This document shows, one piece after another, positions 274-59,765 of a stretch of DNA of 64,000 nt (positions within the stretch are counted from its first letter, which is position 1; each line of letters starts with the position of its first letter). Source of the DNA: Octopus vulgaris (Eukaryota); contig OX597818.1 in assembly GCA_951406725.2 (NCBI GenBank), forward strand, positions 132,494,001 through 132,558,000. The letters are read 5' to 3'. The position numbers and the translations under genes are program-made. The notes under the pieces are model-generated. The model ran no database searches and was not told the DNA's origin. It saw nothing but the letters and a program-made list of their open reading frames with translations.

Positions 274-795
274 GTTCAAGAAGACATAGAAACCCTTGCT
301 TCAGATCGAGTTGGATGGCAAACAAAGGTGTGAAGTGGAGTAAAAGCATTTGAAGAAGCCAGGATAATGCAAGTAAGACACAAAAGAGATCTAAGGAAAA
401 ATTTAATGATTGTGAAGGTTAATGGCAATGACCTTTTTGTGACCACAGTCTGTGACAGTCCATGCTTGTGTTTAGCTAGCCTCAAATCTCATCTGCAAAT
501 GCATATAAAACTAACATCCACCAACTATTCTGACTATATGCCTGTGCACACCTTTGAAAGCAGTGTATGCCAGAAAGTTTGCAAATCAAACAGAGGCCTC
601 AAAAGACATATTAAGACCCACAAAGAGCAGAACCTATCTGCAAGTATTGGTGGTCCAAATCAGAGGTGCAATCTATGTGGGTGTCTTTTCAGAACATTGT
701 CTGGTTTAAAAAGCCACATCAGATGCCATGATGGTGTTAAGGTGTAGGTACAAGAGGTGGTCTAACTCTGTATAAGGAGTAGACAACTGCCATAT
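274..795 (+). mobile_element. 3' end of an RTE-type non-LTR retrotransposon ORF with C-terminal C2H2 zinc fingers (pseudogenised)
   Basis: In frame with ORF 367..747: QEDIETLASDRVGWQTKV*SGVKAFEEARIMQ matches the RTE post-RT 'LAxDRxxW..V..G...FE..R' pattern (stop at 331-333). It is followed by C2H2-like motifs (CQKVCKSNRGLKRHIKTH, CNLCGCLFRTLSGLKSHIRCH, plus one degenerate) and a short 3' tail running into (TA)n. Confidence 0.7.
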
Positions 796-6154: not shown

Positions 6155-6199
<45 letters not shown>

Positions 6200-6200
<1 letters not shown>

Positions 6201-6392
6201 ATGGGAAGGTTTACGAAAATAAACAAAAGACGAATGCAGGTGGAGTACAAACAAGTAAATGTATTAGTATGGCACTCAGGAATAGAAATAGAACAAGTCT
6301 TTTATGTTTCGAGCCTACGCTCTTCGACAGAAAGATACACAGAAAAGAAACAAGGAGAGAAATAAATGCGTGTAGGAGCTAACGGTCCATCA
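6200..6392 (-). mobile_element. Short HHR-bearing element (PLE terminal-repeat-like) abutting (TA)n
   Basis: Same family as 17190-17377, opposite orientation. Minus-strand motif CTTT-CTGTCGA-A-GAGC-GTAG-GCTC-GAAA-CA-TA-AAAG at 6299-6334. Confidence 0.7.
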
Positions 6393-6439
6393 GGATTTAA
6401 GAATATCATCATTATCATCACTTTCACCACTACCATGGT

Positions 6440-6566
6440 GACCGATAGAATAAGTACTGGGCTTACAAAAGAATAAGTCCCAAGGTCGAGTTGCTCGATT
6501 AAAGGTGGTGCTCCAGCATGGCCGCAGTCAAATGACTGAAACAAGTAAAAGAGTAAAAGAGAGAGT
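6440..6566 (+). mobile_element. SINE family B, 3' fragment
   Basis: GACCGATAGAATAAGTACT...CAAGTAAAAGAGTAAAAGAG. Confidence 0.85.
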
Positions 6567-6940
6567 AAGAGTATAGGTTGGTTTTTTTTTTGTGTTTTAC
6601 ACATATTACACAATTAATTCAATAATTTGTTGTCAGTATTGAGATGATGAACTTAACATTAAATGTAGCATGGACCTAAGTACACTTTTTGGTAGATAAA
6701 TAAAATGCCTTCTACTATAAAAATCTAAAAAAAAAAAACAAATAGCAAAGAAGAAATTATGCTTATCCTTATTCTAATAAACTTTAATATTTTTATTTAT
6801 TAGCTGTTTTTCTAATGTTCCTTGATTCATTGCTCTTCTGGCAAAATAAAGAAATCATTACCGTTGTTTTTGTTAGCACTTTTACCATCATCGTTCTTGT
6901 TGTAGTTACTACTACTACGACAACGACTAACCCCTACCAT

Positions 6941-6975
<35 letters not shown>

Positions 6976-7278
6976 ATACGGCTGCTGCTGCTGCTGCTAC
7001 TACTACTACTACTGCTACTGCTACTACCACTACTACTACTACTACTACTACTTTCTGTTTATTTTTACTACTTTCTGTTTATTTTCAGTTTTTTGTGGGG
7101 GTTTATTTTCAAAATTTGAATAGAAGTAAATTTTTTTTAAAGTGAGTCTCATATTTCTTGAAATATATTGATTTCAAAAATAAATTCGTGACCATTGAAT
7201 AGGAAAAGGATAAAGTCTGGAGGGTTTTTTTAATATATATATTTTATTTTATTTTATTTTGTTATAAGAAAATACTTT

Positions 7279-7402
7279 ATATATACATACACATATACAT
7301 ATATACATGAAGATACATACATACATACATACATACATACATACATACATACATACATACATGCATGCATAGATTCATACATACACATACATGCATACAT
7401 GC

Positions 7403-7458
<56 letters not shown>

Positions 7459-7737
7459 CATGCACACATATATGCATATTTGTATGTACATATATGTATA
7501 TATATATATACACACATATATGCATATTTGTATGTATATATATATATATGTATGCATATTTGTATGTATATATATGTATATATATATATATATATACATA
7601 CATATATAAAAAGTATGTGTGTATGTGCATCTGTGCACATACGTACACCTTTACGTATACATGCATATATATTAATATATATGTGTGTGTATGTACGTGT
7701 ATGTGTGTGTGTCTGTGCATGTGTGTGTGTGTGTGTG
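7279..7737. repeat. Compound (AT)/(CATA)/(GT) microsatellite
   Basis: Directly visible. Confidence 0.95.
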
Positions 7738-8195
7738 CTGGTAATTAAATAAGTTGATCAATTATTAAAAAAAACACAAGAGAAAATAAAAAGAAGAAAA
7801 TAAAGAGAAGGAAATAAACACTGAAAGAACTGAATGAAATATTTAAACTGAGAAAGTAATATGAAAGGTGTGATAAGAGGGTGTGATGGAAATGGGGACA
7901 TGGGAGTGTAAATAATAAAAAGTGAGAGGTTAGATAAGGAAAAATAGAAATAAAAGAGGGTGGGGTGGGGGTGGGAAAGGGAAGAAAGGCATAAAGTGTA
8001 AGTTTGATAGAAAGAGAGCAGAGCAAGCAGGAAGAGTAAGTATATAGACAGAGTGTGAGGGACGAAAATAGATTGACAAAAAAAAAAACATATAGATAAA
8101 CATCGGAATATTATATAGAAGATGAGAGTGACAGTTTGATACAGGAGACGGATAAGAGTAAAAAAATTAGATGCAAAAAGAGACAGGAATTTTAT

Positions 8196-8226
<31 letters not shown>

Positions 8227-8254
8227 CACACACACATACACATATCTCTCTTTC

Positions 8255-8666
8255 TCTTTCTCTTTCTCTTTTGCTTGTTTCTGTCATTTGACTGCAGCCA
8301 TGCTGGAGCACCGCCTATAATCGAGCAAACTCGACCCCGGGACTTATTCTTTTTGTAAGCCCAGGACTTATTCTATCGGTCTCTTTTGCCGAACCGCTAA
8401 GTTACGGGGACGCAAACACACCAGCATCGGTTGTCAAGCAATGCTTGGGGGACAAACACAGACACACAAACATACACGCAAACATATATATATATACGTA
8501 TATACGACGAGCTTCTTTCAGTTTCCATCTACCAAATCCACTCACAAGGCTTTGGTCGGCCCGAGACTATAGTAGAAGACATTTACCCAAAGTGCCACAC
8601 CGTGGGACTGAACCCAGAACCATGTGGTTGGTAAGCAAGTACTTACCACACAGCCACTCCCGCGCC
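8255..8666 (-). mobile_element. SINE family B, full length
   Basis: Reverse complement of the family-B copies. Confidence 0.92.
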
Positions 8667-8712
8667 TATATATTCACACACACACATATACATATACACA
8701 CACATATATATA

Positions 8713-8957
8713 GGTGCAGGCATGGCTGTGGGGGTAAGAAGCTTGCTTCTCAACCATATGGTTCTGGGTTCAGTCCCATTACATGGCACCTTGGGCAAGT
8801 ATCTTCTACTATAGCCACAGGCTGGCCAAGGCCTTGTGAGTGGATTTGATAGATGGAAACTGAAAGAAGCCCGTCGTATATGTAAACCCACCAGCACCAG
8901 TCGTCAAGCGGTGATGTGGGGATGAACACAGACACAAAGACACACACATATTCATTC

Positions 8958-9024
<67 letters not shown>

Positions 9025-9125
9025 TGTGTGCGTGCCTGCGTGTATGCGGGTCTTTGTGTCTGTGTTCATCCCAGCATCACCACTTGATGACCGGTGTTGG
9101 TGTGTTTACATCCCCGTAACTTAGT
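8713..9125 (+). mobile_element. SINE family B (older, 3'-truncated)
   Basis: Head GGTGCAGGCATGGCTGTG, internal (GT)n; head-to-head with the 8255-8666 copy. Confidence 0.85.
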
Positions 9126-9479
9126 GAAGTTAAAACAAGCACTGATATTTTGAAAGCATTTAATACACGTGATCCGGATAATCATGCAAGAAAGAAAAAG
9201 AATTCATCTCCTACTTAACGCCTTCATTTAAGACATTTCAAAATATGAATAACAGTAAAATTCGCCCTTTATATACCTATGTCAACAGAATTCACCTACA
9301 GGAAGGAATGAAGAATAATAGCTAGGAGTAGAATATTTATAAAGAGGGGTCTTTTGTGTGCCCCCACAAGCCCTTTTGTATTTTCCAACCTTCACTTTGA
9401 ACTATCAACATCATTCTGACACCCATTTATCACACCTTTACTTCCCTTTCTCTCTTTCTTTCTTTCTTTCTTCATATTA

Positions 9480-9905
<426 letters not shown>

Positions 9906-11503
9906 CATTAAAAGATTTTTTTCATTTATTTATTTGACCCGTTTCCCTCCGATCAACTTTAATAAGTTTAACCTACTGCCTGTCAATCGAAAATCAATTT
10001 CACATTATCTCTGTGCACAGCCTGGATCCCATTTCATATAGCCATTGGACTGTACACGTTATCCATCTCTCTGACTTACATAAAATAATAAATTTTTATT
10101 CCATCTTCCTTCTCAATAACCTGATTGCAATTATCATGGGTTAAGGTGAAACTGAAGTAATATGAAATTGCTCCTCTGAGAAGCCATGTGCCAGGACCCA
10201 GTCACCATATTCTTCCATGTTAAGTGTTCAGTGCAAAGAAATATAAGTAGTCTTTTAAACATCAGTTAGGTTATTTCGTTTTTATGAAGAATTCCTTTAA
10301 TGTTGCAGAATGCCTATAATAATTAAAAGGCTAATATTTAATTTTCCCAATCAGTCGAATGACTTGTGCTTAGCCACTGGCATCCATATTAGGTCAAACG
10401 TCAAGGTTAAATTTCATATTAAAAGGAAAATTTGTTTGATAAATAATGCAGTATCTTTGTTATCACCTACCAATATCTTATTCTCAGAATTTAATTAATT
10501 GAATCAATATTAAAGTTTTCAATTAAAGTTTTAATTTGAATTAAGTGCAACTAAAACAACAACACGTTGGTACTTAGCTTAACCTGACTGAATTTTGTAA
10601 ATTACTTATTTGCATCATTTATAGATTCGTGAGTCATCCAAATCGTTAATAATTAATGGATGTCGATCAAACTGAGAGAAAAGAAAATTTTTTAATCAAT
10701 ATATAGAGGCAAAAATCTATATTTGAAATTAAAAAATTTAAAAACAAAACATAATTGATAAGTATTTAGGGACTATAGTATAACAACAGTCTTTTGGAGA
10801 TATTCTGAAAGAGTATATTTTTTCCAGTTTTTTTTTACATAGAATTACTATTGAATAATAGTTAAAGATTTCTCAACATTCTTTTTTTTTAATATTCATA
10901 AAAATTATAACACGTTGGGAAACATTTTTTATGAATTATTTTTAGAGAAAAATGAAGAAGAATGTTGAGAATTCTTGCTAGTGAGTTATAATTTTTGAAT
11001 TATGAAATATTAAATTACTATAAAACTTTATATCTGAAAAATGTCAGGATTAATAACAACTTAAGCGATCAAACTCACTTCAAATCAAAATAATTCCAAA
11101 TACTTATTTTAATAACTTATTTCCTTCACACGTTCTTAGAATAAATGTAAAGTTACAAAATTTCGTTGACGGTGTAATAGCTAATGCTTTGTACATTAAA
11201 AGTAAAAATACACAAATAGTTGTAATTTATATGCTAATAAGTTTGGTCTTAAATACAGTCAGAAATTATGAGCACGCAAGAAGAATAGAAATTCAGAAAT
11301 AGAAATTTTGGTCTTGGATGCTTTTCATTTTCCTCTTTTTTTTTGCATTCCTTCCAAAATTTGATGTCACCTTACTAGTACAAATCCGGTACTAATACAA
11401 AGACATGGACATGATGTTCAGAAGAAAGGATGAAAGAGGCAATCAAAGGTTGTAAGACGTTACTTGAAGTTGCCTTCATGTACAATCAACAGTATATACT
11501 CTT

Positions 11504-11866
11504 GGTTACGACGACGAGGGTTCCGGTTGATCCGAATTAACGGAACAGCCTGCTCGTGAAATTAACGTGTAAGTGGCTGAGCACTCCACAGACACGTGCA
11601 CCCTTAACGTAGTTCTCGGGGATATTCAGCGTGACACAGAGAGTGACAAGGCCGGCCCCTTGAAATACAGGTACAACAGAAGCAAGAAGTAAGAGTGAGA
11701 GAAAGTTGTGGTGAAAGAGTACAGCAGGGATCACCACCATCCCCTGCTGGAGCCTCGTGGAGCTTTTAGGTGTTTTCGCTCAATAAACACTCACAACGCC
11801 CGGTCTGGGAATCGAAACCGCGATCCTATGACCGCGAGTCCACTGCCCTAACCACTGGGCCATTGC
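11504..11866 (-). mobile_element. SINE family C
   Basis: Reverse complement of the 2999-3377 family. Confidence 0.92.
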
Positions 11867-12058
11867 AGGCTTGAGTGATACTAGAATTACAGGTGACTAT
11901 GACGATGACAGTAAGCTTGACAGAGAAGGTAAACTGAATGTCATCTAGGCTAGAAAACCCTGAGATACAGACAGAAGAATGTAAAGAGACGGACGAAGAA
12001 GGTCACATTCAGCAGAACAGAAGCCTAAAACATGGAGTTAGTATTAAACTTTACTAAG

Positions 12059-12245
12059 ATGGTGAGCTGGCAGAATCGTTAGCGCGTTGGGCAAAATGTT
12101 TAGTGGCTTTTCGTCCGCCGAGGTCAACTTTGCTTTCATCCTTTTGGGGTCGACAAAATAAGTACCAGTTGAGTACTGGAGTCGATGTAATTGACTTCTC
12201 TCTTCTCTCGATATTGCTGGCTTTGTGCTAAAATTTGAAATCAGT
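12059..12245 (+). mobile_element. SINE family A (old tail, internal deletion)
   Basis: Head and core match; TSD-like AGTATTAAACT(T)TACTAA on both sides. Confidence 0.85.
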
Positions 12246-12274
12246 ATTAAACTTACTAAAAAAATACCCCTACT

Positions 12275-12708
12275 CAGGAGTGGCTGTGTGGTAAGTAACT
12301 TGCTAACCAACCACATGGTTCCGGGTTCAGTCCCACTGCGTGGCATCTTGGGCAAGTGTCTTCTGCTATAGCCCCGGGCCGACCAATGCCTTGTGAGTGG
12401 ATTTGGTAGATGGAAACTGAAAGAAGTCTGTCGTATATATGTATATATATATATATATATATATCTATGTATGTGTGTGTGTGTGTATGTGTGTGTGTAT
12501 GTGTGTGTGTTTGTCACTCTAGCATTGCTTGACAACCGATGCTGGTGTGTTTACGTCCCCGTCACTTAGCGGTTCGGCAAAAGAGACCGATAGAATAGGT
12601 ACTGGGCTTACAAAAAGAATAAGTCCTGGGGTCGATTTGCTCGACTAAAAGGCGGTGCTCCAGCATGGCCGCAGTCAAATGACTGAAACAAGTAAAAGAG
12701 AAAAAGAG
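12275..12708 (+). mobile_element. SINE family B
   Basis: Near-consensus copy. Confidence 0.92.
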
Positions 12709-13360
12709 ATACGTAAACATTATTGATGCCACATACATAAGGTATTCTTTTTGTTTAAATGATTTTAAGCTGTGGTATTTCATCCAGGCAAAGTCCCTTT
12801 GAGATTAGTGTTAAAATATATTGTATACCTCAAAAACCAAGCAAAACGAATCGCCCCTGAGGTGAATGAGAGTGACAAATAATTGATATTTTGCTGTAGT
12901 CATCGATGCCGTATATTCGAGTCACCCTTGAAACGAATTCACATCGTTGGTTTGTGATATATGCAATAAGTGTAAAAGCTATCTGCTGATGTGCCACTTG
13001 TGTGACAGCAATAATGTTTACATTACTGGAGTTGCTTCTAACTCAAAATCTAATTTTGTTTTACATATCCATTAGACATTATCCAGAAAGACCCCTGCTT
13101 CACTCCAAAAATTTTCCTAATGATTTTACAGAACAAAAGTTTCCAGTATTTGTTCTCAAAGACAGAACTCTAAGTGGCAAAAGTGAAAGTAGACGATGGT
13201 TTGCATTCAGTGCTAGAAATATCCCTTTCCTCGACTGCTTTGTGGGGTTTTTCTGTCATGCAGTAGACTCAACAACAATTGATCAGGTCCTCCAAACACG
13301 GCTGGGGTTGCATATCAAAAACTGAGAAAATAGTTTAACATGCTACTTGAATACCTAAAC

Positions 13361-13561
13361 CAGTGCTTTTCAAACTTTTTGCTGGAGCGGAACCCCAAGG
13401 AAACATTCCACTGGCTCGAGGAACCCCTGTGCAATAATTTGATAGTCTTATGCACACATATCTGCACAGGAGAATTAAAAATTACTGCCGATTTGAGCAG
13501 TTTTGTAACTTCTTGCGGAACCCTTGCACTGTACTGGCGGAACCCTGGTTGAAAACCACTG
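13361..13561. mobile_element. hAT (Charlie-like) MITE, 201 bp
   Basis: TIRs CAGTGCTTTTCAA / TTGAAAACCACTG; perfect 8-bp TSD ACCTAAAC (13353-13360 / 13562-13569); subterminal GGAACCC repeats. Confidence 0.92.
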
Positions 13562-13919
13562 ACCTAAACAATACCAACACACGAAATCTTCTATTTAAAA
13601 TGATGCAAATTGCAGAGGAAGTAAAGCAGTGATACAAGGGTTTTATTATGTCTCACAAAGGAAACATCATTGGGACAGAAACAACGAAATATATATATAC
13701 CAGGATAATTGAAATAGTAATCTTTCTTGGATGTCTAAGGGATCATAGATATCCTGACTCGTTTGAATCCAGTTAAAACTGAACGTATTGCCTTCATGCA
13801 CAATCAACAAGATTAGGGAGGGCTTCCCTAATTTATTATTCTGCTCAGTATCAAATTACCTTTATCTGTGACTGCAGATTATGTTCAGGGTCATTTACTA
13901 GATCCATTCAAATCTTTTT

Positions 13920-14290
13920 AGGTGTGGTTGTGTGGTAAGAAGTTTGCTTCCCAGTCATATGGTAACGAGTTCAACCCCACTGTGTTGCACCTTAGGCTAG
14001 TGTCATCTACTATAGTCTCAAGCCGATCGACCAAAATCTTGTGAGTGGATTTGGTAGACGAGTGTGTATGTGTCTTTGTGTCTATGTTTGTTCATCTCTA
14101 CCGCTTCAAAACTGTGTTGGTGTCTTTACGTCCCTGCAACTTAGCAGTTCAGCAAAAGACACTGATAGAATAAGTACCAGGCTTTAAAAAAAATAAGTAC
14201 TAGGGTCTATTAGTTAGGCAAAAACGTTTCAAACCGGTGCCCCAGCATGGCCCCTGTCTAATGACTGAATCAAGAAATAAAAGAAAAGTA
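13920..14290 (+). mobile_element. SINE family B (diverged)
   Basis: GTGTGGTAAGAAGTTTGCTTCCC head through CCAGCATGG...GACTGAA tail. Confidence 0.8.
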
Positions 14291-14454
14291 GAAGAAAGAT
14301 AGTCATTGGACAGACTGAGAGGCCATGAAGGATCTCGATTATCCAAAATAGAAATGGTCACACATTTTCAATGAATCAAAATTTAGTTCATGAAAATATT
14401 GAAAACGCACTCCAATTTTCACTAAAACATTAGTTATTTGCAAGATGTGAAACC

Positions 14455-14548
14455 GGCGAGCTGGCAGAAACGTTAGCACGCCGGGCGAAATGCCTAGCGG
14501 TATTTTGTCTACCGTTACGTTCTGAGTTCAAATTCATCCGAGGTCGAC
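14455..14548 (+). mobile_element. SINE family A, head only, with TSD
   Basis: Ends at GAGGTCGAC; 14-bp TSD TATTTGCAAGATGT (14435-14448 / 14549-14562). Confidence 0.88.
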
Positions 14549-14689
14549 TATTTGCAAGATGTAGCCATGTTTAATTTTCGCTGGGAGGGAACCACAAACA
14601 GATAAGTTAACATTCGTTTTGTTCATTATTTTTATTTCGTATTATCTATTCGTATTTTTTATCCTCCTTTATTCCTTAAATTTTTTATT

Positions 14690-15266
14690 TCTTTTGGAAG
14701 AGAGAGCCAGTCGATTAGGTCAACCCCAGTACGCAACTGGTACTTAATTTATCGACCCCGAAAGGATGAAAGGCAAAGTCGACATCGGCGGAATGTGAAC
14801 TCAGAACGTAATGCCGCTAAGAATTTTGTCCGGCGCTGTAACGATTCTTATTTCTTTACTGCCCACAAGGGGCTAAACATAGAGGGGACAAACAAGGACA
14901 GACAAAGGGATTAAGTCGATTACATCGACCCCAGTGCGTAACTGGTACTTATTTAATCGACCCCGAAAGGAAGAAAGGCAAAGTCGACCTCAGCGGAATT
15001 TGAACTCAGAACGTAACGGCAGACGAAATACCTATTTCTTTATTACCCACAAGGGGCTAAACACAGAGGGGACAAACAAGGACAGACATAGGTATTAAGT
15101 CGATTATATCGACCCCAGTGCGTAACTGGTACTTATTTAATCGACCCCGAAAGGATGAAAGGCAAAGTCGACCTCGGCGGAATTTGAACTCAGAACGTAA
15201 CGGCAGACGAAATACCGCAAAGCATTTCGCCCGGCGTGCTAACGTTTCTGCCAGCTCACTGCCTTA
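14690..15266 (-). mobile_element. Stack of three family-A SINE units
   Basis: Three core repeats (CGACCCCGAAAGGA...GGCAAAGTCGAC); junctions at 14848/14849 and 15032/15033. Confidence 0.9.
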
Positions 15267-15399
15267 ACTTTAAATGCATAAAATTATTGGACAAATGTCC
15301 AAGCAATGTTTCAGAGTACATATAAGTACATAAGAGGAAGGAAGTGCAGCAGTTTAAAACGTGAAGATATTGGGAGTCACAATAAAAATACATGAGTAA

Positions 15400-15590
15400 A
15401 AAGACGTTCTTCCGAATGTAATTGTTATGCGAATATTTTGCACTTTACTAGTTAGAGTAGATTCTGCCGAGAAATCTTTCTGTAAATTAAAACCTAAGAG
15501 AAGCTTTTTGAGGAACATGGTGACACAGGAAAGACTGAATAACTCACACATCCTTAGTATTGAGAACGAAATTGCAGGGACAATTGGCTT
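15400..15590 (+). pseudogene. hAT transposase C-terminal dimerisation-domain remnant
   Basis: Translates MRIFCTLLVRVDSAEKSFCKLKPKRSFLRNMVTQERLNNSHILSIENE, matching the hAT 'SAERSFSKLK...LRSTM.QERL..L..LSIE' signature. Confidence 0.8.
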
Positions 15591-16422
15591 GCTTTAAAAA
15601 TAGCATGTAATGCATGTTTGGTTTTGGTTATGAGAATTCTCAATTCTGCATAAATGAACTCATTAAAATAATTCTTGAGAATGTGTTTGAACTTGCAATA
15701 AATTATCCAGTTAATTAAACTGGATTTTTTAGTGTTTTTCTTTTCTCAGATAATATTGTTGGTTGTTGAAAGTTTTTGTCCACGGAACCTTTCACAAAAG
15801 AAATCGGCCCTTTAAACCATAAATTAGTGATATTAAGTCTTGAAATATTGCTTAAAGTCCATATTCTGGAGATTTAGCACCTATATCCTTACCAGCCAGC
15901 CCCAAGACCCGGCATCGCTCTCAGAGGGCTAGATAGTAAGTGAGGAGAAAGGGAAAATTACATTTAGATACATAAATAGACGCAGTGAGAGGAAGAAGGA
16001 AGAGAGAAAGAGAAAAAGAGAGAGGAAGAGAGAGTGAGAGAGAGAGAAAGAAAGAAAGAAAGAAAGAGTTATGAGAGATAGAAAGGTAGGGAAAGACACG
16101 GGAAAAGAAAAGGTGATAGATGAAGAGGAAGGGAGAGGTAAGAGAAAAATAATATATTTAAATTAAATTTGAAGAAACAAGATTTTCATAAGACATTGCA
16201 TTATAGAAAATTCAAAGAAGATAATATTTCTCAATGGCCGGAATACATTTTCACTGGATATTGGAAATACAGGACATTGCTTATTTGATGGTGACACTCG
16301 TTTACAACTATAGAACGATGTCATGACAAAGAGATATAAAGACACCCATAGAAGTATATATGCATAAACATATATGCATATATACATATTACAAGCATAT
16401 ATGCATGCATATATATATATAG

Positions 16423-16630
16423 TTAATCCAAACATGAAAACACAAAGAGAAAACACAACAACGCGAGCACGTGGAACAAATATAGTATTGTTGGACGCTC
16501 AGGAAAGAAGGGAAGAAGGGGGGTTTAACGTTTCGAGCGAAGCTCTTCGTCGGAAACATAGGAGAAGGAAAGATCCAGAGAAGGGAAGACAGAGGAAAAA
16601 AAAATCGCCAACGGTACACACGCGGTCACA
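16423..16630 (-). mobile_element. Short HHR-bearing element in (TA)n, related to 6200-6392 and 17190-17377
   Basis: Minus-strand GTTT-CCGACGA-A-GAGC-TTC-GCTC-GAAA-CG-TT-AAAC at 16523-16557; shares a TAGTAT..GG..CTCAGGAA block with the 6.2-kb element. Confidence 0.7.
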
Positions 16631-16868
16631 TATATATATATACATATATACATATGTACACACACATACCCGCACACACACACGCTCACACATATACACA
16701 TGCGTGTATATATATACATGATGTAATAAATAAAATATATGCATGCATACAAACATATATGTACATACCGCATATATCTTATTTATTACATTATTGTCTG
16801 ACAGCGCGTTCGCGTCAGGGTCGATTCGATTCGTCGTTTCGTTCCACTTCCCTTCCTCCCAGTTTTGT

Positions 16869-16955
<87 letters not shown>

Positions 16956-17011
16956 CAATAGAGCATTAGCGCGAAGCAGTGTTTAGGTATGAGCAGAATT
17001 CAGGTTGGTAT

Positions 17012-17058
17012 ATCTCATTGACAAGAGTTAAAAAACTCGAAACATCGATATCTGAGAT
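17012..17058 (+). ncRNA. Type-I hammerhead ribozyme fold, U3-A8 core variant
   Basis: Stem I ATCTCA/TGAGAT; core TTGACAA; stem II GAGTT/AACTC; GAAA; near-palindromic stem III ACATCGATAT; cleavage triplet AUC. Confidence 0.75.
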
Positions 17059-17189
17059 TCCTAACAGATGGCGACATTGAACGAACTGGGTGTTTTTACG
17101 CCTTTTTACCCCAAGAAAGATTTTTCTCCATAGTAACTATAGTGTATTAGTCTTTTTGTAGTTGAAATATTTGTCACAAATTTCAACTA

Positions 17190-17373
17190 TCACCATGATA
17201 GATCGTTAGCCACTACACACATTTTTTTCACTCCTTGTTTTTTCTGTGTCCCTTTCTGTAGAAGAGCATAGGCTCGAAACGTAAAAGACTTTTTCTATTC
17301 CTGAGCGTTATACTAATACATCTGTTTGTTTTGTACACCACCTGTCTTCGTCTTTTGTTTTTTTGTAAACTGT

Positions 17374-17377
<4 letters not shown>
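17190..17377 (+). mobile_element. Short HHR-bearing element ending in (TA)n
   Basis: CTTT-CTGTAGA-A-GAGC-ATAG-GCTC-GAAA-CG-TA-AAAG at 17252-17287; homologous to 6200-6392. Confidence 0.72.
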
Positions 17378-17442
<65 letters not shown>

Positions 17443-18567
17443 CAACTATATGAAAGCATTACTACCGTTAAAAACAGTAATAATAAGGCGGTTAACAAGA
17501 CTTCTACCATAATAGGTATAATATTAAATATTTGAAAAAAAAAAAGAAGGGTAAAATTACCGCTTGCCAAAAACGAAAGTGAAAGCTTCAAAACCCACAC
17601 ACGATAAATACACACACGAACAATGCTATGAACATTTTCAAAAATAGGCCTACCTTCAGGATGGAATTTGAAGAGAGTTAACATACCCCAATATCAATTG
17701 ATTTCATGCTGTGTATGAGAAAACATGCTTTGCTATCTATTTCCAAAATATTCACTACTGAAGCTAAGAGTTTGTGACTTGAGTCTAATGCCACTGTGAT
17801 CTTCAGGCGAGAACCGTTACAACTCACTATTGGTGTACTTTTATCCTTTGGCATGGGTGTGTGCATGTGTGCGTATGTGGGTGCGTTTGTGTGAGCGCGT
17901 GCATGTATGTGTGTGTATGTGTGTGGGTGTGTGCGTGTGTGCGTGTGTGTGTGGTCTAGTGCTTGTGTTTCTTCATTGGTAAGCTTTCTGAGTGCACTAA
18001 ATGGGCAACGTGTGCCTGGCCTTTTTTATTGGTTATTTTGTGATGAGGTGATTGTATTTCCTTAAAATTATGTATTTTGACATTTATCCAAAGAAATATT
18101 TGTGTGTGTATGTGCATGGCAGATAATGATCATGGCAATAACATACCAGTAATATTAGTATGTTATTTTCCAAATATGGGGTAGGCGATATATATATATA
18201 TCACTTGTGCCTAGAATAGAAAAGATTATTTATAAAATTCGATAAGTTTAAGATATACAAATGATAGCGTAGGTGGATTGTTTCAACTCGTTAAAATGAA
18301 GCGGGTGGGAAGAAGAAAAAAGGGGTTAAAAACAGACGACATTAACAGTGGATGAAAGAATATAAACATCTATGCAGATAGGAAGAGGCAAGATATTCCT
18401 TAACGAAAGAAATAGAGCGACGTGGAGTCGTAATAAATGGAGGATAGATATTAAGCAAAAAGAAAAGAAGATTGTTATCTAGATCAAGGCTATGAATTGC
18501 TCCAGGAAAATTGCTTTTCAAGGCATAGATCTGGCCAAGATTTTTATGGAAAATTAATAGTTCCTAT

Positions 18568-18832
18568 GTTCGAATCCCGGACCGGGCTGCATGTTGTGCT
18601 CTTGAGCAAGACTCTTTATTTCACGTTTTTCCAGTTCACTCAACTGTAGAAATAAGTTGCGACGTCATTGGTCCCAAGATGTATCGGACTTTGGTTTTTC
18701 TCTTGGATAACATCAGTGGCATGGCATGGGTGACTGCTGGTCTTCCATAAACAACCTTCCTTGGACTTGTGTTTTGGAGGGAAACTTTCTAGGTGCAATT
18801 CCATGGTCATTCATGACCAAAGGAGGTCTTTA
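18568..18832 (+). mobile_element. 5'-truncated tRNA-derived SINE (fourth family)
   Basis: Starts at B box GTTCGAATCCC, then CTTGAGCAAG...TTTATTTCAC; TSD TAATAGTTC(C/T)TAT (18555-18567 / 18833-18845). Confidence 0.8.
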
Positions 18833-19127
18833 TAATAGTTCTTATGCATACTAGTTTCACATATTCATACTGCTCACGGTTTCTGAGGAAAAAGACCAGG
18901 TCTGGAAGAAATTGGCATCAATGGCCTTGCAAACGTTACTATCAAACCACAAAGAATTTAAACAGATAAATCAAAACAACTAAACAATCCTTCTAGCCTA
19001 ACATCTTGACCAGTATTTTAATCATTGAGCTCGAGAAAATGGAGTGTAAATTGGCTTCTGCTGGATTTGAACTCAGAGTGTAAAGATCTAGAAGAAATAT
19101 CACTATGTGATTTATTTATTTTTTTTA

Positions 19128-19473
19128 GAAGCACTCCGTCGGTTGATCCGAATCAACGGAACAGCCTGCTCGTGAAATTAACGTGTAAGTGGCTGAGCAC
19201 TCCACAGACACGTGTACCCTTAACGTAGTTCTCGGGGATATTCAGCGTGACACAGAGAGTGACAAGGCCGGCCCTTTGAAATACAGGTACAACAGAAACA
19301 GGAAGTAAGAGTGAGAGAAAGTTGTGGTGAAAGAGTACAGCAGGGATGACCACCATCCCCTGCCGGAGCCTCGTGGAGCTTTAGGTGTTTTCGCTCAATA
19401 AACACTCACAACGCCCGGTCTGAGAATCGAAACCGCGAGTCCGCTGCCCTAACCACTGGGCCATTGCGCCTCC
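19128..19473 (-). mobile_element. SINE family C nested in a decayed family-A copy
   Basis: TSD ATGTGATTTAT (19105-19115 / 19476-19486); the flanks rejoin as GATTTGAACTCAGAG...GCACTAACGACACTGCCA. Confidence 0.9.
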
Positions 19474-20344
19474 ACATGTGATTTATAAAGCACTAACGAC
19501 ACTGCCAACAACTGAGTGGAAGTATATAGATAAATAACTAAATGAATAAGTGAAACAGATACGTAAATAAATAAATAGATCAAAGTGAGTGATTATTATT
19601 ATCGAGTGAAAATTTAGATCAGGAAGAACTCAAAGGAATTTAAAATTAAAATTAATGAATAAATAAGTTAATGAGTAAATAAATAAATTAGCATTATACA
19701 ATTAAATCAGTGATAATTTGCCCAAGCTAATGATTATTGAATAAATACACAATTAAACCATTAGATAAAACAAATGGGAAAATAATTTTTATTCGAATTT
19801 AAATTTCAAGGTATTTAAAGGTATACTGCCTACTGTTAAACTGGGAAGGAATCGTAAAACGAATTGAAATGATTATAAACATTTGTTAATAATAATTAAT
19901 AACGACAGAAAAAGTATTAATATGAAAAGGCAATCTTTATTTCCATGGTAACGAGGACATTGTGTGAGAACACACAATACTGTGCAGTTTACCTTGAGAG
20001 GACCTCTTATGTGGGTTTGTGGTGCATAAAGGCACTCATATTTATATCATTGACAGGCGAAAACTGTCTGTTACGGATGCCGGAACTGTCAGATGATGTG
20101 CATTCGCCCTAATTTTGGGTTCTTCAGTGACAGATATCTAGTAGCGACGAAACAGCCGATTCTCCCGCTAACGATATATAGAACTGTAAACACTTTTCAG
20201 GCACCGGTGTCACAAATAACCAACTGGCTAATTAAAAAATAATTATTAGGAATAGAAGCAGTGTTAATATCAAAAGGCAACATTGTATTAGATCTTTTGT
20301 GCTCAACGAGTTCATATGAGATGTTCTTTTAAGGTAATAGCGCA

Positions 20345-20531
20345 GTATTCTGGGACACCACTTTGGAAGGTTTCAGTCAAACAAACGATCTCAGTACTCA
20401 TCAAGTTTGTTTCTTTGTTTTATCGGTTTCTTAAGTCGAACTGCTAAGTTACGGGAACGTAAACAACCAAAAACTGGCTGTCAAGCAGTGGAGGAGGACA
20501 AACAATACAGACATACAGACACATACGAACG

Positions 20532-20775: not shown

Positions 20776-21337
20776 ATGTTGCTTATATTTCCTGGACAAA
20801 CACTTTGTTTATGACAAAAATGTCAGTGCATCTTATGCATTTTATATCAACAGAGGTAATAGGGTAACGACTTTTCGAATCTTGGTCGGCCATTTTGCTG
20901 ACCGACACCAGTGAGAAATTTATCCTAACTCCATTACAACCTTCAAACGATGACCTCCCCTGTTCGAAGGTTGTAATGGACACAGGTTTGTGTGTCACGT
21001 AGCTAGCTAGAGGCGATGGCCTCTTGGAGCTAACCAGTAGCAGCATTCGTCCTATTTTTCTGGACTGCCATGTTAGCTTGGCGATAACTATTAATATATA
21101 TAAATATATATATATATGTATATATATAATGATAAAATCTCAGAGCGAGTTATAAACAGTAGCGGTAAAACATCGTGACGTGTATATGCCATTCGAATAT
21201 GGCTAACCCCTAAGGGTGGATGTTACTGTAGTTTGCAGCCTCAGGAAGACACCTCCTCCAGCTGGCTATAGACACACTTTCTGTGCCCTATCAGTATTTG
21301 TGAAGGGAAGTCATCCTTCCCGTCTTCAACTTATGAT

Positions 21338-57540: not shown

Positions 57541-57545
<5 letters not shown>

Positions 57546-57748
57546 CTTTATTTAAAGCAGCAGAAAATTCAACAAAATCTGTTACTCTGAGTTTCTCGTT
57601 GCCGATCATCTATCTGATGAACGGCAACGAGAAACTCAGAGTACAGATTTTGTTGAATTTTCTGCTGCTTTAAATAAAGCATATTACTCTACCACTGGTA
57701 TTTGAGTACTCTTTTTCCACCTTGTTTCACATTTATGTGTTTACTCCG

Positions 57749-57750
<2 letters not shown>
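57546..57750 (+). mobile_element. Fold-back element in (TA)n: near-perfect hairpin of about 65 bp whose apex carries CTGATGA...GAAAC
   Basis: 57546-57610 is the inverse of 57616-57679; CTGATGA-ACG-GCAA-CGA-GAAACTC at 57614-57637. Confidence 0.75.
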
Positions 57751-59298: not shown

Positions 59299-59765
59299 AT
59301 ATATAAGAAAAATAAAAACGGAAAATACGCACACTTACATGGTTATAGTATAATTTTTAATGTATCGACCGGTTTCGCAATCGCTATTCATGATACAATG
59401 TGTTTTTTTTAAACCTGTCTCCTGCCTGTACACATATTTTTCCCCACCCAAAACCTAAACAGTTATCTCCCTTACAGACAAGAATAACAACAATAATAAC
59501 AACCAATTACCTCTCTTTACTTGTCAACTTGTAAAATCATTCACTCGTGAATCTCATTATAAACAACATGGACCCATTTTCTTCTTAAGAAGCAATATAT
59601 TTTCATATAAATTAAACATTGTATCATGAATAGCGATTGCGAAACCGGTCGATACATTAAAAATTATACTATAACCATTTAAGTGTGCGTATTTTCCGTT
59701 TTTATTTTTCTTATATACATTACAATCCACCACGTGGGGACAACCGAAATCCATCTTTTCTGTTA
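59299..59765. mobile_element. Fold-back element between TA tracts; ~100-bp inverted arms each containing an HHR fold
   Basis: 59301-59401 is the inverse of 59616-59716, with a spacer of about 214 bp. Confidence 0.8.
59620..59656 (+). ncRNA. Minimal type-I hammerhead fold, A3-U8 core variant (mirror copy at 59361-59397, minus strand)
   Basis: TGTATC-ATGAATA-GC-GATT-GC-GAAA-CCGG-TC-GATACA: 6-bp stem I, palindromic stem III ACCGGT, GUC triplet. Confidence 0.75.

Follow-up and report, generated by a model that had tools for sequence, protein, structure and literature searches.

A hammerhead-shaped motif with a U3-A8 core in a dispersed octopus repeat that likely derives from a Penelope-like element

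In this work, we analysed a stretch of 64,000 nucleotides of Octopus vulgaris DNA (referred to below as the window) and found in it a repeat whose motif has, by its letters and pairing, the shape of a type I hammerhead, with a U-A pair at positions 3-8 of the core. The motif (motif A, 17012-17058, plus strand) lies within a dispersed multi-copy repeat, element A (16954-17190, plus strand), whose 3′ limit is uncertain between 17150 and 17190. A type I fold with a family-wide U3-A8 pair, situated in such a repeat, is likely to mark the 5′-truncated end of a Penelope-like element (a pseudo-LTR plus tail) inserted in a (TA)n run, and we assign to this reading a probability of roughly 60%.

The letters and coordinates of motif A agree exactly with those given in a preliminary description of this DNA, and its 6-bp stem I, 5-bp stem II, near-palindromic stem III with a mismatch beside the core, and UUGACAA core with a U3-A8 pair (U17018-A17023, a Watson-Crick pair) were all confirmed. 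The 5′ strand of helix I (17012-17017, plus strand, as are all parts of the motif) forms six of six Watson-Crick pairs with 17053-17058. The core U3 U4 G5 A6 C7 A8 A9 (17018-17024) passes with no extra base into helix II (17025-17038), which has five base pairs (17025-17029 with 17034-17038, the first pair being G10.1-C11.1) and an A4 loop. Then follow G12 A13 A14 A15.1 (GAAA, 17039-17042), the helix III segment, which is a 10-nt palindrome with one mismatched pair (17042-17051), and C17 as the H17 nucleotide (17052), so that from the hammerhead numbering the cut is predicted between 17052 and 17053. The bases conserved in type I cores (U4 G5 A6 A9, G12 A13 A14, A15.1-U16.1 and H17) are all present. 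In the Octopus vulgaris copy, 8 of the 10 positions of the helix III segment are self-complementary and C15.2 faces A16.2; this 15.2-16.2 mismatch is predicted to weaken the hammerhead of the present copy. Beyond a 3x2 internal loop, helix I can add five pairs in a predicted fold (17004-17008 with 17061-17065, one of them G-U); the 5′ side of this possible extension, including the 3-nt loop strand, occupies 17004-17011, and its 3′ side, counted with the helix I strand and the 2-nt loop strand, 17053-17065. Such a geometry would be compatible with a contact between loop 1 and loop 2, and the distal helix is variable among copies.

Motif A is not a chance product. We scanned both strands with a descriptor in which positions 3 and 8 were left free, and 100 block-wise dinucleotide shuffles of the window served as the null. 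With the strict descriptor (helix I of at least 6 bp, helix II of at least 5 bp, a Watson-Crick pair at 3-8), the window gave one match and the shuffles none (0/100); with the loosest one (helix I of at least 4 bp, helix II of at least 3 bp, any letters at 3-8), 5 of the 100 shuffles gave a match. The scan with free positions 3 and 8 found four matches in the window, all with Watson-Crick pairs there: 17018 (U-A), 59626 and 59391 (A-U, inverted copies) and 61096 (a loose match). A chance resemblance with no ribozyme ancestry could find support in the ordinary folding energy of the motif (z -1.22; 20 of 200 shuffles fold equally well) and in the lack of an Rfam match. In the minimum-energy fold (-14.1 kcal/mol), some core bases are paired with helix III, the hammerhead-shaped fold being at -7.4. 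Rfam gave no match at the gathering score across the 64-kb window, but it is a weak test here, since the other hammerhead motifs of the window were missed equally; over 16954-17376 it returned four chance-level matches (E 1.9-6.1), with no hammerhead among them. Against chance stand the empty shuffles and the fact that in other copies the palindrome is restored at precisely the position expected from the model, and we regard this explanation as barely credible. Patterns of the family with positions 3, 7 and 8 left free found no loci in viral contigs and none in metagenome contigs. Three loci were picked up by a looser U3-A8 pattern; by eye they are without helix I, and they were taken as chance.

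Element A directly follows a (TA)n run of 75 nt (16879-16953), its likely insertion target, and the 423 nt of 16954-17376 are enclosed by two such runs. The window as a whole has the character of animal DNA, being AT-rich and full of repeats, among them 69 (TA)n runs, and no second copy of element A was found in its 64 kb. Part of the stretch is contained in 20 of the 24 listed sequencing runs, four of which were compared at 80% likeness and a reporting limit of 4%, namely X2, X5 and X6 (contig runs with organism codes A, B and C, respectively) and X22 (raw reads). X22 was uninformative, with five reads on the stretch, all less than 90% alike and none on element A. In X2, X5 and X6, and thus in three organism codes, element A is multi-copy, and the contig depth shows strong homology among copies over 16954-17118, which has faded out by ~17150. 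The summed depth over motif A in X5 amounted to 6,173-20,476 vs. 16-45 for single listed contigs, summed depth not being equal to copy number. One X2 contig spans 16976-17128 with two differences; X2 is only guessed to be RNA, so this is no sign of transcription.

The preliminary description predicted, as a test set beforehand, that stem III would be perfect in the family. This proved to be the case: position 17050 is G in 95%, 95% and 75% of the depth in X5, X6 and X2 (95, 83 and 8 contigs), thus indicating that the family helix III is a perfect 10-nt palindrome and that the present copy is the exception. Conservation of U3 and A8 in other copies, also expected there, apparently holds as well. 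No alternative letter at U3 (17018) or A8 (17023) occurs among 40 of the 75 variant rows, and no variant at all falls within 16954-17045 (helix I 5′ strand, core and helix II) among the same 40. The depth in the bin of 17018 and 17023 was 80, 12,000 (X5) and 1,361 across the three runs. The lowest best-run share among the 40 of 75 rows is about 12%, and, if the rows are sorted by share as they seem to be, alternatives at U3 or A8 should lie below that value.

Judged by these 40 of 75 rows, U3-A8 is likely the family state of element A and not decay. The opposite explanation, in which an ordinary C3-G8 core has decayed in this copy or in a small subfamily, would involve two changes that are both transitions, one of them at a possible CpG, in a copy that carries other private changes (e.g., at 17050). 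A C3-G8 minority might hide in the variant rows beyond these 40, and the lower depth over the core would also be compatible with one. As no row at 17018 or 17023 appears in the three runs among the 40, with shares down to about 12%, we consider decay improbable. In X5, the depth is about 20,000 over helices II-III, 12,000 (~60% of that) over the core and 6,173 over the helix I 5′ strand, and four joints (each in one contig) bypass the core region of element A or put other sequence in its place; together these data point to some copies of element A without the motif A core. Single X5 contigs were also seen to join the 5′ part of element A (from 17000) to a word in the imperfect inverted repeat between elements A and B (17159-17189), without the hammerhead section, which suggests that relatives of element A without the ribozyme exist. 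In helix I, the single variant listed, 17055 A>G (18-32% of the depth), keeps the pairing as U-G.

Other pairs at positions 3-8 do exist in the window, as the preliminary description stated. A C3-G8 motif at 30706-30801 (plus strand) has a 3-bp helix I and a long branched helix II opening with a U-U pair, and an A3-U8 motif at 59306-59720 is present as two inverted copies, 98% identical over 105 nt, with a helix II of 2-3 bp. By analogy, the inverted layout at 59306-59720 resembles a 5′ inversion of Penelope-like elements. To call the C-G (30.7 kb), A-U (59.6 kb) and U-A forms "internal covariation" was, however, an overstatement. No blastn similarity was found among these three motifs, nor between element A and the motifs at 16.5, 30.7, 36.9 and 59.6 kb, so that the U3-A8, C3-G8 and A3-U8 motifs represent unrelated families and three independent agreements with the known pair; on comparison of their sequences, they are not alignment covariation among homologues. 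The motif at 16553 (minus strand) is a minimal hammerhead motif with C4, about 460 nt upstream of motif A on the opposite strand, and together with motif A and the motif of element B described below it makes three hammerhead motifs within about 750 nt. At 36720-36950, a minimal hammerhead-like family forms an inverted pair inside (TAA)n, with U6 at 36879 (plus strand) and C6 in the other copy.

The novelty of the U3-A8 pair was likewise claimed too strongly, as it is already in print for natural hammerheads and for Penelope-like elements. The C3-G8 pair is established by crystal structure (PMC3884650). U3-A8 was reported as natural covariation in 2011, in a paper which states that activity in vitro had already been demonstrated for covarying 3-8 pairs (Perreault et al., PMC3088659), and about 1,300 U3-A8 hammerheads, located by way of a Penelope-like Cercyon element, were described in 2014 in Schistosoma mansoni (Cervera and De la Pena, PMC4209133). 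The 56 rows of Fig. S3 in PMC4209133, counted by eye, include two with U3-A8, one with U3-G8 and none with A3-U8; four of them have a 10-nt palindromic helix III, and two are without an extra base after A9, which the other 54 possess. Neither A3-U8 nor U6 is among these 56 rows, which came from a descriptor that fixes the core. A3-U8 was not found in the literature searched, nor is element A described in the literature listed for octopus hammerhead ribozymes; repeat libraries and most subscription papers lay outside both searches.

Downstream of element A lies element B (17193-17376, plus strand), a separate, very high-copy repeat flanked on its right by a (TA)n run of 58 nt (17377-17434). It bears a minimal hammerhead-like motif (17252-17287, plus strand, with the core at 17256-17262) on the same strand as motif A and 238 nt downstream of it (17018 to 17256). 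The second motif that the preliminary description placed next to the first is thus present, but it carries U at the conserved position 6, a fact left unmentioned there. The motif has a 4-bp helix I, an extra A after A9, a 4-bp helix II, a 4-nt palindrome and A17283 as H17; apart from U6, it keeps the core bases and helices, and position 7 varies. U6 is the family state of element B, given that A at 17259 (position 6) accounts for 0.1-0.5% of the depth in three runs and U6 for more than 99%. The sibling of element B at 6392-6203 (minus strand, 82% over 191 columns) also has U6 (6330, minus strand). This U6 is more unusual than U3-A8.

Contig depth and blastn show that elements A and B are separate families. 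The summed depth of element B is hundreds of times that of element A, with millions on B in X5, and the 5′ loose ends of element B are varied. The depth at the A-B junction (17149-17178) is 179-295 in X5, 10-23 in X6 and 0 in X2, the X5 values being 1-2% of the depth over motif A, and no piece bridging A and B is found among the 24 listed pieces (44,441 further ones are beyond the list). Element B likely landed at the same target as element A. The same 10-mer occurs at 16949-16958 and 17436-17445, on both sides of the block formed by A, B and the (TA)n run; as a target-site duplication it is a weak candidate, for it recurs in unrelated surroundings at 20779-20788, and TA repeat makes up half of its letters.

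These data bear on a further explanation, according to which A and B would be a functional two-ribozyme cassette that releases or circularises the fragment 17053-17283. The two motifs are indeed on the same strand, with predicted cut sites 231 nt apart. In a double hammerhead, each 5′ helix I strand must pair with the 3′ strand of its partner. Whichever way the helix I strands of A and B are crossed, the first pair is a mismatch, which makes the two incompatible as a dimer. Moreover, the motif of element B, being minimal, would depend on a partner of its own kind, helix III of motif A is mismatched in the present copy, the A-B junction is rare, and U6 is family-wide in element B; the natural A6C change lowers Mg2+ cleavage strongly, making it much slower, U6 itself not being covered in the sources (PMC3088659, PMC7151607). 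Release or circularisation, as put forward in the preliminary description, is therefore not supported, and we find such a cassette highly improbable.

The derivation of element A from a Penelope-like element is supported by the short palindromic helix III in the family, its dispersed multi-copy character, the (TA)n target (for this copy only), and the occurrence elsewhere in the window of several more such minimal motifs, two of which lie in inverted pairs. For the most part, the published hammerheads of Penelope-like elements occur singly in truncated elements; they have a palindromic helix III and show little activity in vitro (PMC4209133). Penelope-like elements typically target microsatellites and have inverted 5′ copies, Neptune and Naiad preferring (TA)n (PMC8557442), and such elements tend to insert beside one another (PMC6765202). 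One octopus is reported to harbour 31 recently active Penelope-like families, the accessible part of that report containing no mention of ribozymes (PMC13282606). Close in kind are the Cercyon U3-A8 hammerheads of S. mansoni (PMC4209133), which are also type I, with U3-A8, palindromic helix III and many dispersed single copies. In the two published U3-A8 rows, A9 is followed by an extra base, the palindrome measures 4 nt and helix I has 3-4 bp, whereas element A has no extra base, a 10-nt palindrome and a 6-bp helix I; a parent ORF is known for one of these rows and none lies beside the element A copy. Rows 1-3 of Aedes aegypti and row 2 of Saccoglossus kowalevskii in the same Fig. S3 share the 10-nt self-complementary helix III with motif A, and the Saccoglossus row is also without the extra base after A9; unlike motif A, all these rows keep C3-G8. 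The variants of Perreault et al. (PMC3088659) show the same compensatory change but differ in hosts and surrounding structure.

If element A is such a truncated end, then in the tandem transcript of its parent two copies of motif A would pair through the 10-nt palindrome and be cut after C17, in line with the dimer principle for hammerheads (PMC4209133, PMC6765202). Alternatively, a single motif A in the parent transcript might fold on its own, helix III then having 3 bp, and cleave at the same place. Insertion by the element's endonuclease, which would prefer AT-rich or (TA)n targets, combined with 5′ truncation, would produce solo ends such as element A. With its mismatch beside the core, and with neither a partner of its kind nearby nor a parent ORF, the present copy is likely a weakened relic. 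No RT or GIY-YIG Pfam family was found in the 19 frames scanned (from 149 frames of at least 90 aa in the window), where Pfam detected C2H2 fingers and a Tc1-type transposase only, so that the link to Penelope rests on architecture and context. A short ATG frame of 21 codons (17068-17133, plus strand) begins 16 nt after the predicted cut, and 8 of its 17 listed variants are synonymous, vs. 3/17 and 5/17 in the other frames; this is a faint hint that it could possibly be the start of the parent ORF (the "tail"). In Anolis PAc, the hammerhead lies across the beginning of the ORF, depends on protein for its cleavage and is dispensable for insertion in vitro (PMC11167929).

Elsewhere in the window, a frame of the Tc1/mariner transposase type (43903-44679, plus strand; Pfam HTH_Tnp_Tc3_2 and DDE_3) is interrupted by a (TA)n run, and further mariner-like fragments were seen by eye near 57.9-59.0 and 62.4-62.8 kb, two of which were scanned with no Pfam match. 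A frame at 334-747 (plus strand) has weak C2H2 zinc-finger matches (E 3e-05, under the curated cut-off). At 57545-57750, a long near-perfect inverted repeat was noted by eye between two (TA)n runs.

Counting against a Penelope-like origin are the absence of an extra base after A9 in motif A and its helix I of 6 bp, which may contain an internal loop, and in those features its frame is closer to canonical retrozyme hammerheads. Element A might thus be a solo unit of a non-LTR retrozyme, i.e., a canonical type I hammerhead with a loop 1-loop 2 contact and cleavage as a monomer, giving a circular RNA of ~240 nt from tandem arrays located elsewhere. The 6-bp helix I, short helix II, low GC and unit of a few hundred bases do recall the non-LTR retrozymes of coral, mussel and axolotl (PMC7229834). 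The internal loop, the possible distal helix and the A-rich loop 2 point the same way, as does the unit of about 200-240 nt vs. 220-240 bp in coral retrozymes (PMC7229834), and solo retrozyme monomers are recognised (bioRxiv 10.64898/2026.07.22.740005). Those retrozymes, however, form tandem arrays and their circular RNA is shown (PMC7229834), whereas element A occurs in a single copy in the window, with no tandem units at this locus and a contact between loops that is predicted. None of the 15 listed joints (there are three further ones) returns within element A, as seen in contigs only, and its 3′ homology fades gradually with no unit boundary. The distal helix also varies: three listed variants keep its pairing, and a letter at 17065, in 17% of the X5 depth, breaks a pair, although such variants are weak evidence either way, since transitions tend to preserve pairs on the plus strand. 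On balance, a retrozyme origin appears unlikely but, with this canonical-like frame, not implausible.

Similarly tentative is the idea that element A belongs to an undescribed family whose hammerhead has a fixed U3-A8 pair in an otherwise canonical-like setting (helix I of 6 bp, an internal loop, helix III of 3 bp) and cleaves as a monomer, this family being one of several independent microsatellite-targeting families, each having fixed another core variant (U3-A8, A3-U8, U6). If this were true, the window would hold a natural panel of core variants, and the huge U6 family B would either be retained despite having no catalytic activity or be active when other metals or proteins are present.

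Our results add one more animal repeat family with a U3-A8 hammerhead core, U-A at positions 3-8 having been established before. The hammerhead model is unchanged, as both the 3-8 pair and its U-A form were known. Annotation based on Rfam misses motifs of this sort. A useful by-product is that core variants occurring naturally within a single genome can now be put to the test, chiefly the family-wide U6 of element B and the A3-U8 pair of the motif at 59.6 kb.
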